A stretch of DNA of 64,000 nt. Origin: Chlamydiota bacterium. GTDB taxonomy: Bacteria; Chlamydiota; Chlamydiia; Chlamydiales; Rhabdochlamydiaceae. A program made the translations under genes and the position numbers. The DNA lies in contig JABDFI010000002.1 in NCBI GenBank assembly GCA_013286595.1, positions 10,151-74,150 on the forward strand. The letters are read 5' to 3'. Below, piece after piece: positions 15,452-18,407 of this stretch. Each line of letters starts with the position of its first letter. The first letter of the stretch is position 1. The notes beneath the pieces are model-generated. The model did no database searches. It worked only from the letters and a program-made list of their open reading frames with translations, and was not told the origin of the DNA.

Positions 15452-15842
15452 CTATGGGACATGAATCATTTCTTCTGATAATTGAACGCCTGAAGGACCG
15501 TTTTAGCTAGTTCCCGAATTTCGAGCCATTCAGGCGTATTAATAAGCTGTTCTGTAGATTTATACGGATAAAACACCTCATATATTTCAGTAAAAATATC
15601 CAACTTCTTATGAAGCTCCATAAGTATTCGAAGTTGGGTATCTGTTATTTCAAAATCTCTCTAAAATTATCTAAAATGGGACTCCCATCGTCAAAAAAAT
15701 CTAAAAGTGTATCATCAATATCATCACATTCAGGTCCTTCAATTCTCACCCATACTCTCTCTTGATATTTTTGATCAGAAATACCAGCAATGTTCTCAAG
15801 AAAACTATCTAATCTTTGTCGTCTATCAATATTCAAAATCAA
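15452..15842 (-). pseudogene. Tandem copy C of the small acidic ORF (frameshifted)
   Basis: The first 62 codons are nearly identical to 16474..16860. After a 1-nt indel following DNFR, homology continues out of frame down to about 15452. Confidence 0.8.
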
Positions 15843-15918
15843 TTACTCCGATAAATATATTCTTCAAGTGGAATGTGGGCCTCCGAAGAATTGAAGTTGT
15901 TTACTTTTGTGCCAGTAG
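15839..15918 (-). pseudogene. Relic of a large-gene 3' end (last ~25 codons: ...TGTKVNNFNSSEAHIPLEEYIYRSN*)
   Basis: The reverse-strand translation ends in the same AHIPLEEYIYRSN-TGA, overlapping the TTG of copy C. The sequence upstream of AHIP has diverged from the intact gene. Confidence 0.75.
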
Positions 15919-15967
15919 AGAAAATACGCAAGAGCTTAAATTATTTTAAATTATTTTCATCAAGTGA

Positions 15968-16349
15968 GCCGTGAGACATGAATCATTTCTTCTGATAATT
16001 GAACGCCTGAAGAACCGTTTTAGCTAGTTCTCGAATTTCAAGCCATTCAGGCGTATTAATAAGCAGTTCTGTAGACTTATATGGATAAAACCCCATGTGT
16101 TTTAGTAAAAATATCCAACTTCTTATGAAGCTCCATAAGTATTCGATATTGGGTATCTGTTATTTCAAAATCTCTAAAATTTTCTAAAATGGGATTCCCA
16201 TCGTCAAAAAAATCTAAAACTGTATCATCAATATCATCACATTCAGGTCCTTCAATTCTCACCCATACTCTCTCTTGATATTTTTGATCAGAAATACCAG
16301 CGATGTTCTCAAGAAAACTATCTAATCTTTGTCGTCTATTAATATTCAA
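15968..16349 (-). pseudogene. Tandem copy B of the small acidic ORF (frameshifted)
   Basis: About 85 codons are nearly identical to copy A. A 2-nt deletion at the position corresponding to KTYGVFYPY in copy A causes a premature stop at 16077, and homology continues to about 15968. Confidence 0.8.
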
Positions 16350-16351
16350 AA

Positions 16352-16431
16352 TTAATTACTCCGATAAATATATTCTTCGAGTGGAATGTGGGCCTCAGGA
16401 GAATTGAAGTTGTTTACTTTTGTGCCAGTAG
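16352..16431 (-). pseudogene. Second relic of a large-gene 3' end (...ATGTKVNNFNSPEAHIPLEEYIYRSN*)
   Basis: Same structure as 15839-15918, here ending in TAA. Confidence 0.75.
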
Positions 16432-16473
16432 CAAAAGAGCTTAAATTATTTTAAATTATTTTCATTAAACGAG

Positions 16474-16860
16474 CTATGACATGAATCCTTTCTTCTGATA
16501 ATTGAAAGCCTGAAGGACCGTTTTAGCTAGTTCCCGAATTTCGAGCCATTCAGGGGTATTAATAAGCTGTTCTGTAGACTTATATGGATAAAACACCCCA
16601 TATGTTTTAGTAAAAATATCCAACTTCTTATGAAGTTCCATAAGTATACGATGTTGGGTATCTGTTATTTCAAAATCTCTAAAATTATCTAAAATGGGAT
16701 TCCCATCGTCAAAAAAATCTAAAATTGTATCATCAATATCATCACATTCAGGTCCTTCAATTCTCACCCATACTCTCTCTTGATATTTTTGATCAGAAAT
16801 ACCAGCGATGTTCTCAAGAAAACTATCTAATATTTGTCGTCTATCACTATTCAAAATCAA
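16474..16860 (-). CDS. Small acidic protein (128 aa), candidate immunity protein or secretion chaperone
   Basis: This is the only intact copy of the triplicated unit. The TTG start overlaps the TGA of the upstream gene (TTGA), with GGAG 3 nt upstream and a second in-frame TTG 6 nt downstream. It is D/E-rich (EGPECDDIDDTILDFFDDGNPILDNFRDFEITD). Confidence 0.65.
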   Translation of the reverse strand: MILNSDRRQILDSFLENIAGISDQKYQERVWVRIEGPECDDIDDTILDFFDDGNPILDNFRDFEITDTQHRILMELHKKLDIFTKTYGVFYPYKSTEQLINTPEWLEIRELAKTVLQAFNYQKKGFMS

Positions 16861-18407
16861 TTACTCCGATAAATATATTCTTCAAGTGGAATGTGGGCCT
16901 TCGGAGATTTGTTAGAAACTATATTTCCATACTTATCAATAGATTTACCCTTGATCCGTTGGTTAACATATGGCTTCCTTTGGTGCGGGTGAGGACTATG
17001 AGGCTTACCCGGCATGACCCTTACATAGGTCCCCACGTCTGTTGGATGCACATATTTCATTCCGCCAGATTTATCTGTAAGCTTGATTCTATAATTCTCT
17101 GGAATGCCTTGAGGTCTAGGAAAAGTTTTTATTCCAGCCTCTTGAATAAGTTCCCTAAGCTGATTTTCCTCGAAGTATTTTCCCTTATGAATATCTAAAG
17201 AGGCTTCAGCGCTTTTATATTTCTCAGCAGACTCTCGCATTGCTCGCTTATAGATGAGTCCTTCGCCAATATTGGCGACTTTTTCTAAGTTTCCCGTTTT
17301 ATCAATGAGTGCGACTTCTCGAGAGGCCAGCCCAGCCTCTTCGACCAAAGCTGTAGATTGTGAGCTCTCTCGAACCGCCCCTTTGAACTTTGAGGCGTTG
17401 AGTCCAAAGGGCAAAGGCAATAAACCTGAGGCAAAGTCGTTAATGAGACGCTCTTTTTTGGGAACATATGGATTTGTTGAAAGTAATCGATCGATTGTTT
17501 GATGCCCTGCTTCGATTAATTTTTCACAATTCTCCTTTGGAGAGAAAAGGTCGCTAGGCGGATTGGTAATAGATGGGAAAAGTTGGGAGCCCACTTCTTT
17601 GATCTCCTCGTTTAGCCTAGGGATAACAGAGACTAAATCGGCGATCCCCTCGAGAGCTTCGTGAGCAAAATTAGCTCCGAGTGTTTTAATCGTTTCACCT
17701 AAGGAGGCATCGGGAGTTATAGAGTAAAGCTCTTCTTCTAGAATCTGTTCCTTAAACGAAGAGACATGTTCATCGAGGATAGCTTGCAAAATGGGAGCTT
17801 GTGGTTCTTCTTTTTTTACAGGTTGGGTTTTATCTTCTTTTTCGGGTCCGGATGCGGCAACGCCGGCAGCAGCGGCTGCCGCTGTAGAAGCTGCTGCAAT
17901 TGCACAAATAACTGCAGCTGTGCCGACGATTACCGCTGCGCCAATAAGAATAGCTTTTTTATTGCGTTTTACAAATTTTCTGGTTTGATCCCATTTCTCT
18001 TTAAACCAACTCTTACAAAGTATGATTTCACCCTGCTCACCGGACAAAACAATGTCGTAGCCACCGTCCTCACCTGCAAAAGAAAACAAATACTCACATG
18101 AATTCAATTCTTGAATATCTTGTTGAAGGGCCAAGCACTGAGCAGCGTCAGGTAACACGCCTTTTATTGCCAAGTTAGTAAGAAAATGGTTAATGCGCTC
18201 CAAATCTGCAAGACTGCATCTTTTCTCCAATTCGCCTGACTCGATGGCATCGATGAGGTTTGTAATTTCATCAAAAGAATAAAGATAATCCTTATCATGG
18301 GGTGAAGCTTGAGAGGCAATTAAAGGAACATTCCCTATAGGATAAAGCGCAAAAGAGGGAATTGTAAGAAGGAGAACTAAATGAACAAGAATCTTAAAAC
18401 AGCGCAT
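16857..18407 (-). CDS. Secreted/membrane protein with a compact basic C-terminal module (candidate toxin or effector)
   Basis: 516 aa with a signal-like N-terminus (MRCFKILVHLVLLLTIPSFALYP), an Ala/Gly/Ile-rich hydrophobic block at about residues 152-186, and a C-terminal KYVHPTDVGTYVRVMPGKPHSPHPHQRKPYVNQ...SPKAHIPLEEYIYRSN. I cannot assign a family with confidence. Confidence 0.7.
   Translation of the reverse strand: MRCFKILVHLVLLLTIPSFALYPIGNVPLIASQASPHDKDYLYSFDEITNLIDAIESGELEKRCSLADLERINHFLTNLAIKGVLPDAAQCLALQQDIQELNSCEYLFSFAGEDGGYDIVLSGEQGEIILCKSWFKEKWDQTRKFVKRNKKAILIGAAVIVGTAAVICAIAAASTAAAAAAGVAASGPEKEDKTQPVKKEEPQAPILQAILDEHVSSFKEQILEEELYSITPDASLGETIKTLGANFAHEALEGIADLVSVIPRLNEEIKEVGSQLFPSITNPPSDLFSPKENCEKLIEAGHQTIDRLLSTNPYVPKKERLINDFASGLLPLPFGLNASKFKGAVRESSQSTALVEEAGLASREVALIDKTGNLEKVANIGEGLIYKRAMRESAEKYKSAEASLDIHKGKYFEENQLRELIQEAGIKTFPRPQGIPENYRIKLTDKSGGMKYVHPTDVGTYVRVMPGKPHSPHPHQRKPYVNQRIKGKSIDKYGNIVSNKSPKAHIPLEEYIYRSN

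Follow-up and report, generated by a model that had tools for sequence, protein, structure and literature searches.

Organization of the locus

The 64,000-nt stretch analyzed here, positions 10,151 to 74,150 of contig JABDFI010000002.1 from a Chlamydiota bacterium of the family Rhabdochlamydiaceae (GCA_013286595.1) and referred to below as the window, has on its minus strand a pair of overlapping genes that resembles a polymorphic toxin-immunity cassette. The first of these (16857..18407), taken from the list of open reading frames (ORFs), codes for a candidate polymorphic toxin of 516 aa plus a stop codon and has 63 homologs in which both ends are conserved. The second (16474..16860), the putative cognate immunity gene, codes for a small protein of 128 aa if translation begins at TTG 16860, or of 126 aa if it begins at TTG 16854. 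The large ORF ends in a TGA that shares bases with the TTG of the small ORF (ttga, 16857-16860), with a GGAG immediately upstream, and the small protein is acidic with an isoelectric point (pI) of 4.6, all of which agrees with the original prediction, a reading of the bare sequence that preceded this analysis. The alternative start, 6 bases further on, has a better spacing to the GGAG and yields the 126-aa product which is present in the public database (P0064). Two further units with disrupted copies of the small gene follow on the same strand. The G+C content of the toxin gene is 42.6% as against 43.1% for the window, and a scan for promoters and terminators gave consensus-level matches only.

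Domains of the 516-aa protein

The 63 relatives of the 516-aa protein were all found in chlamydia-type assemblies. Two stretches are conserved among them, the N-terminal 260 residues and the C-terminal 180 residues, with an insert of tetratricopeptide repeats (TPR) between the two in many members. The Kyte-Doolittle profile of the window protein has two peaks only, in keeping with the signal-like N-terminus and the Ala/Gly/Ile-rich block that had been read from its sequence. The first is a hydrophobic, signal-like segment at residues 1-23 (18339..18407; MRCFKILVHLVLLLTIPSFALYP), which is conserved in the N-terminal alignment. The second and strongest is the Ala/Gly/Ile-rich block at residues 149-185 (17853..17963), presumed to be transmembrane, which is preceded by a basic KFVKRNKK and contains the conserved motif KKHKKAIIIGAAVVV.

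The conserved body of the protein is closed by a junction motif at residues 321-336 (17400..17447; LINDFASGLLPLPFGL), recognized by aligning proteins with different ends. Its family consensus is NDFAIG[IL][ILV]P[LP]PG, also given as NDFAxGxxPxPG. It is followed by a linker at residues 337-417 (17157..17399; ...EEAGLASREVALIDKTGNLEK...), modeled as helices with lower confidence by AlphaFold2 (AF2) and common to two of the C-terminal types described below (types 1 and 2), and then by the putative toxin domain proper at residues 418-516 (16860..17156), in which H454, R463, K468, H470, S471, Q476, Y480, D491 and H505 (within AHIP) stand out. This part of the protein is basic, with a pI of 9.8 for residues 405-516. 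Sequence matches in the PDB to beta-trefoil designs and to I-OnuI were dismissed as artefacts of composition or repeats.

Relationship of the C-terminal domain to PT7

An AF2 model of the C-terminal module built from 34 sequences has a pLDDT (predicted local distance difference test) score above 89 at module residues 50-180, these being the last 130 residues. The sole credible match of this model in a Foldseek search of the PDB was 8OWU (probability 1.00, E-value 2.9e-3, 28% identity, template modeling score 0.66 when normalized to the target), which is the polymorphic toxin PT7(Bc) of Bacillus cereus in its D37A form together with the immunity protein PIM7(Bc). A comparison by hhalign of the chlamydial profile with one made from 18 PT7(Bc)-like proteins gave a probability of 96% and an E-value of 3.9e-9 over 68 columns. 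In the profile search the top 150 matches were inspected, with about 1000 weaker ones lying below them. By this agreement of predicted fold and profile, the last ~100 residues are a distant homolog of PT7(Bc) and a member of the PT7 superfamily.

PT7 is a Mg-dependent, non-specific endo-DNase of 78 aa whose fold is new and which is toxic to E. coli as well as to yeast and fungi. It occurs as a stand-alone protein or fused to LXG in some Firmicutes, and was reported from Firmicutes and Proteobacteria only (bioRxiv 10.1101/2021.10.19.465003); an rRNase activity has been added by a 2026 preprint. Its toxicity is abolished by each of the substitutions D37A, H47A and H73A (Table S11, bioRxiv 10.1101/2021.10.19.465003).

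The fold of PT7(Bc) is shared by the last ~77 residues of the window protein, and the two have in common H24/H454, R33/R463, D59/D491 and the terminal ...NGNIV..KSP.AHIP, in which the essential H73 aligns with the invariant H505 of AHIP. An AHIP-like signature had been mentioned in the original prediction for C-terminal modules of Firmicutes toxins, and PT7 of B. cereus does indeed possess it. The chlamydial domain differs from PT7(Bc) in having an invariant signature of its own, PGKPHS...Q..PY. As in the window, PT7(Bc) is basic and PIM7(Bc) acidic, and the gene for the latter lies directly 3′ of that for the toxin. Their carriers differ, PT7(Bc) being LXG-fused or a stand-alone protein of 78 aa, whereas the window domain is borne by a chlamydial membrane-associated body. 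It should be mentioned that genes of the 78-aa PT7(Bc) type (L087 3001-3606; proteins P0252-P0271) are labeled 'transposase' at NCBI, the molecule name of 8OWU being the same, and this label looks like a misannotation.

The small acidic protein

The small protein has 47 relatives with 45-68% identity, which are chlamydial as well. Its predicted structure is all-alpha, with high confidence (pLDDT 89). In a Foldseek search of the PDB this model gave only weak matches to helical bundles (ApoE, vinculin), from which no assignment was made, and the immunity chain of 8OWU was absent among them. At the level of the family, 41 of 41 chlamydial relatives match SCO4402_fam (NCBIfam NF047838; best E-value 2.4e-10) and 34 of 41 match DUF7945 (Pfam PF25656), the match of the small protein spanning positions 11-118 of the 119 in the SCO4402_fam/DUF7945 profile. 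A BLASTP comparison with a DUF7945 protein of Cronobacter gave 26% identity over 118 aa (E-value 2e-6). By these matches the small protein can be classed as a divergent, full-length member of the DUF7945/SCO4402 family. A tblastn search of plasmids with the small protein gave no match, and nothing specific on DUF7945 or SCO4402 was found in the literature.

Coupling of the two genes in Chlamydiota and other phyla

A scan with the profile of the C-terminal domain, with one genome per species, identified 93 loci, nearly all of them in metagenome-assembled genomes (MAGs) of Chlamydiota and often several to a genome. In each of the 82 loci that were examined, the C-terminal domain is followed at a distance of 5-45 nt by the start of a gene homologous to the small one. 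Divergence of the small protein correlates with that of the C-terminal domain at r = 0.69 (partial 0.62) and with that of the N-terminus at r = 0.41, these being values without phylogenetic correction. The mean identity among the closest relatives is 54% for the C-terminal module and 39% for the N-terminus; the module had been described as variable-looking in the original prediction, and within its own type it is the reverse, the best-conserved part of the protein.

Outside the Chlamydiota, a tblastn search of plasmids with the C-terminal domain found four independent cases, in Leptospira, Cronobacter, Janthinobacterium and Ochrobactrum, and in all four the next, overlapping gene codes for a homolog of the small protein. 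Both partners are thus homologous to those of the window and stand in the same order (E-values of 2e-22 to 3e-9 with the C-terminal profile and of 4e-10 to 2e-5 with the small-protein profile), and the downstream proteins of the three proteobacterial loci are bona fide DUF7945 proteins at 73-84 bits. The carriers of these pairs are unlike that of the window, being either a CdiA-CT fragment delimited by VENN or, in Leptospira, an Ntox10-type N-terminal part. The toxin of Cronobacter dublinensis pCDU1 (NZ_CP012267.1) is an orphan CdiA-CT that contains VENN. The pairs are parts of arrays that hold further toxin and immunity genes, those for Imm26, MafI and Ntox33 being present in the Cronobacter and Janthinobacterium loci. 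According to a MAFFT alignment, which is tentative as the PT7 profile missed these proteins, the proteobacterial versions appear to keep RID and DH at the positions of PT7 D37 and D46-H47. Because the homologous pair recurs in plasmid loci of other phyla, the PT7-like domain and the DUF7945-like protein form a mobile module of two genes that belongs to the classical polymorphic toxin loci. In a phage collection, the C-terminal domain gave chance matches only.

The closest non-chlamydial relative found is an orphan toxin of Leptospira interrogans pLiSL14 (L083 3683-4261), whose C-terminal 80 residues are the PT7-like/AHIP domain with 40% identity. This protein carries the name 'polymorphic toxin type 10', which was rejected as the identity of the shared domain, the name stemming from the N-terminal ~100 residues (Ntox10 positions 1-83 of 193). 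It was also considered as PT8, a Leptospira-specific nuclease with an immunity protein of 116 aa, and this too was rejected, the primer-deduced PT8 peptides AHY.GYGRLK, ARTDYNA, PDTHYSKYKYENG and ...TPGEYK* being absent from it.

Polymorphism of the chlamydial family

The original prediction had proposed a survey of related genomes for exchange of the C-terminal module behind a conserved N-terminal body. Such exchange was found, and with it matching exchange of the downstream gene. When metagenomes were searched with a profile made from the N-terminal 260 residues, 79 loci were obtained, without taxonomic labels, of which 56 code for complete proteins with the full N-terminal body. The last 110 residues of these 56 proteins fall into at least nine unrelated types, most of which part ways after the junction NDFAxGxxPxPG. 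Type 0 (...GRGAYFREDGTFRGFIEY) has 16 members and the PT7-like type 1 has 15. There are 8 members of type 2 (...DWDKLDPRQREAL...), which match positions 1-81 only of the C-terminal profile, and 6 of type 3 (...VRFDF..P.PH..PH.H.E). Two types resemble known families at sub-threshold level, type 4 (4 members) being LHH-like HNH (Pfam E-value 6e-4) and type 5 (3 members) being DUF4258-like (E-value 3e-5), while types 6-8 are singletons with 1 member each.

Each of the larger types tends to have a downstream ORF type of its own, this being the case for type 0 (13/13), type 1 (13/13), type 2 (8/8) and type 4 (4/4), with exceptions in type 3 (3/4) and in type 5, which has two ORF types. A Pfam search of the downstream ORFs of the other types identified no known immunity family. 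In one locus (L105 916-2457 and 4004-5683) two toxin genes share the N-terminal body but differ in C-terminal type, a heterologous array as in Rhs and contact-dependent inhibition (CDI) loci. Another, in a Chlamydiales MAG (L001 6595-9452), has seven small ORFs of 75-160 aa on the same strand 3′ of the toxin-immunity pair, with no significant Pfam match, and may be a poly-immunity locus.

Cassettes consisting of a 5′-truncated C-terminal domain and its immunity gene recur in other loci with 58-86% nucleotide identity to the resident module. Orphan cassettes of this kind in L044, L046, L049, L072 and L077 have 64-86% nucleotide identity, and PT7-like orphan fragments lie behind type-2 toxins in L132 (4556-5395) and L162 (2247-2450).

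In its conserved N-terminal body, junction motif, swappable C-terminal toxins, downstream immunity genes and 5′-truncated orphans, the chlamydial family is similar to Rhs, CDI and LXG loci. However, its carrier is without TPS (two-partner secretion), Rhs, PAAR, LXG or any other recognized trafficking domain, and its junction NDFAxGxxPxPG is unlike the VENN or PxxxxDPxGL of known loci. The difference also applies to CDI (CdiA-CT/CdiI), as the window protein has neither PT-VENN nor hemagglutinin domains and VENN is met with only in the distant Cronobacter relative. The carrier family is restricted to Chlamydiota in the data examined here. Full toxin-immunity systems were reported to be rare in intracellular bacteria, an example being Odyssella, and chlamydiae were listed among the lineages holding various toxin domains (Zhang et al., 2012; PMC3482391). 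Nothing specific on 8OWU or on a chlamydial toxin-immunity family was found in the literature.

The tandem array

The small gene had been noted to occur in three tandem units, and this is so: the three units, all on the minus strand, have a start-to-start spacing of 503-517 bp and pairwise identities of 94-95% over ~465 nt, far above chance. However, unit 1 is the only intact copy, the other two being frameshifted. Unit 2 (15930..16440) is an orphan with a toxin 3′ remnant (~16350-16433, ...GTKVNNFNSPEAHIPLEEYIYRSN*) and an immunity pseudogene (15986-16349) in which a 2-bp deletion leaves a stub of 90 aa. Unit 3 (15413..15929) is also an orphan, with a toxin 3′ remnant (~15843-15920) and an immunity pseudogene (15466-15842) that is broken by a 2-bp AG insertion into pieces of 65 aa and 51 aa. 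The toxin remnant of each unit is ~25 codons in length (FATGTKVNNFNSPEAHIPLEEYIYRSN*), and the sequence upstream of AHIP in the remnants is unlike the GNIVSNKSPKAHIP of the resident toxin. An array in Chlamydiales bacterium BSEPT1 (OZ156466.1; L033 4546-8427), where a single PT7-like toxin gene has more than 12 tandem DUF7945-like copies or fragments behind it, with 95-96% nucleotide identity, is a far larger counterpart of the triplication in the window.

Proposed function and alternative explanations

With a C-terminal domain related to PT7, a small gene coupled to it in 82 of 82 loci and the same pair in polymorphic toxin loci of other phyla, the toxin-immunity organization suggested in the original prediction has gained in substance, and the locus is probably a polymorphic toxin-immunity cassette, one of a family specific to Chlamydiota. 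Its carrier would consist, in order, of the signal-like segment, a domain of ~120 aa, the hydrophobic membrane segment, a helical region up to the junction, the linker and the PT7-superfamily toxin domain. Once exported, this last domain would attack nucleic acid, most likely DNA, in rival chlamydiae sharing the host cell or in the host itself. The small acidic protein, whose gene overlaps that of the toxin and would be translationally coupled to it, is expected to bind the toxin domain and block it in the producer cell. The complementary charges of the toxin core and the small protein, similar to those of PT7 and PIM7, would support such a pairing. The orphan cassettes of units 2 and 3 would have originated in tandem duplication or recombination, with frameshifts now eroding them. 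If the argument of Zhang et al. (2012) is applied here, the arrays of orphans and the private immunity genes would speak for conflict between related bacteria.

A number of observations weigh against this interpretation. Pfam and NCBIfam searches with the 516-aa protein, and with its last 109 residues alone, gave nothing meaningful, and thus no match to a Pfam toxin model, while the similarity to PT7 found by phmmer is weak (E-value 0.046). With the same two databases, neither the window protein nor its relatives gave a match to a trafficking or secretion domain, be it of the type V (TPS), type VI (PAAR/Rhs) or type VII (LXG/WXG) secretion systems, MafB-N or others, TPR being all that was detected; nor were secretion system genes found within the window. 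The membrane topology of the protein indicated by the positive-inside rule is at odds with that indicated by its N-terminal segment. The small protein of the window falls below the curated cut-offs of both its families, with 15.9 bits where DUF7945 demands 27 and 32 bits where SCO4402_fam demands 50. Moreover, PIM7 (117 aa, L087:3253-3606) has no match to DUF7945, so that the all-alpha, DUF7945-like partner in the window belongs to an unrelated family. Faulty assembly of the repeat could account for the frameshifts of units 2 and 3. Lastly, the essential pair D37 and H47 of PT7 is lost, D37 aligning with the invariant G467, and H47 with R477 (hhalign) or Y480 (MAFFT). Because neither residue is conserved, the active site would have to be rewired or the chemistry different.

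The explanation that competes best with a weapon against related bacteria is a host-directed effector, in which the toxin is delivered into an amoebal or other eukaryotic host, there to act through its nuclease-like domain, and the small protein serves only to protect the producer before export. Such an effector is compatible with the toxin-immunity anatomy, as a nuclease acting on a universal substrate requires self-immunity regardless of its target, and the toxicity of PT7 extends to yeast and fungi besides bacteria. Chlamydiae are also obligate intracellular bacteria, and many of the carriers possess TPR, a feature also of endosymbiont toxins aimed at the host (Zhang et al., 2012; PMC3482391). 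However, such toxins are usually without immunity genes (Zhang et al., 2012; PMC3482391), whereas in the chlamydial family diverged orphan immunity cassettes accumulate, the swappable C-terminal types with private downstream genes number at least nine and several paralogs occur per genome. Paralogs, orphan cassettes and swappable types are hallmarks of conflict between related bacteria, and a host-directed effector, while possible, is rather unlikely.

A non-toxic role is a less probable explanation still and is considered doubtful. Here, the 516-aa protein would be a conserved membrane protein with a C-terminal domain that binds nucleic acid or protein without catalysis, the small protein would be regulatory and the repeats would be neutral duplications. 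Two of the three essential residues of PT7 are replaced, no toxin Pfam model matches, and conservation is higher in the C-terminal domain than at the N-terminus, unlike in fast-diversifying toxins. Nevertheless, G467, K468, H470, S471, Q476 and Y480 in the altered region are invariant or nearly so, and because of this the site is taken to be maintained and not in decay. H505 is retained, the coupling to the small gene is strict, and the orphan cassettes and the interchange of modules with nuclease-like LHH and DUF4258 domains would be hard to account for without toxicity. The site of the chlamydial branch, to judge by its alignment, may thus be read as maintained but rewired, with a presumed nuclease chemistry.

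That the genes code for a type III secretion effector and its dedicated class I chaperone, the alternative held open in the original prediction, is highly improbable, for although chlamydiae rely on type III secretion and the partner is small (128 aa), acidic and translationally coupled, class I chaperones are generally mixed alpha/beta proteins that bind the N-terminal regions of effectors, whereas this partner has an all-alpha model, co-duplicates with the 3′ end of the large gene, diverges in step with the C-terminal domain, is swapped along with the C-terminal module while the N-terminus stays constant, and occurs with the same toxin domain in an orphan CdiA-CT and in Leptospira.

Under the toxin-immunity interpretation, a wider proposal can be made, for and against which the balance is about even: that environmental Chlamydiota possess a lineage-specific polymorphic toxin system, with a Sec/membrane-associated carrier, a junction of its own and at least nine interchangeable toxins with private immunity genes, which is used against related strains in shared hosts and in which a rewired branch of PT7 pairs with DUF7945 as its immunity protein. 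What is new is a PT7-superfamily protein whose site is altered, together with a carrier, a junction and several unannotated types of toxin and immunity gene. Polymorphic toxin-immunity systems are the main contact-dependent weapons between related bacteria, and in obligate intracellular lineages they are regarded as uncommon. If the Chlamydiota do possess such a family, widespread and in multiple copies, it would mean that chlamydiae encounter their relatives within host cells and compete with them there, or that they turn nucleases on their hosts; it would also provide a new carrier and junction motif and make the delivery of such proteins by chlamydiae directly testable. DUF7945/SCO4402 gains a testable role as an immunity protein, and several unannotated C-terminal modules are flagged as candidate toxins. 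The PT7 fold would gain a branch in which another site is conserved, and this may help in working out the catalytic mechanism of the fold.

Genomic surroundings

A tRNA-His gene (GTG; 18639..18713, plus strand), identified by ARAGORN and Rfam, lies next to the toxin gene. Transposase remnants, fragments only, are found on either side, those of the ISNCY family at 13119..13633 on the minus strand (NCBIfam E-value 1.1e-14) and those of the IS982 family at 18972..19618 on the plus strand (NCBIfam E-values 9e-7 and 1e-8). Together these remnants of insertion sequences bracket a leucine-rich-repeat (LRR) gene, a DUF3185 gene (15159-15371, minus strand), the immunity array, the toxin gene and the tRNA-His gene. 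The original prediction had placed the locus in an island next to tRNA-His. The tRNA gene is there, with the insertion sequence remnants in addition, but a genomic island was rejected despite both, as the region has no intact integrase and no deviation in G+C content.

The LRR gene (13777-14880, plus strand), situated between the ISNCY remnant and the immunity array, codes for a protein with matches to Pfam LRR_4/LRR_6, and begins with N-terminal tandem repeats of 21 nt (7 aa, AAPVLPA-like) that are followed by LRR repeats of 75/150 nt. Elsewhere in the window, the longest ORF of an FtsK-like gene, from TTG 20587, has ~150 nt (20587-20734) in common with the end of the BacA/UppP gene, and the true start of the FtsK-like gene probably lies further downstream.

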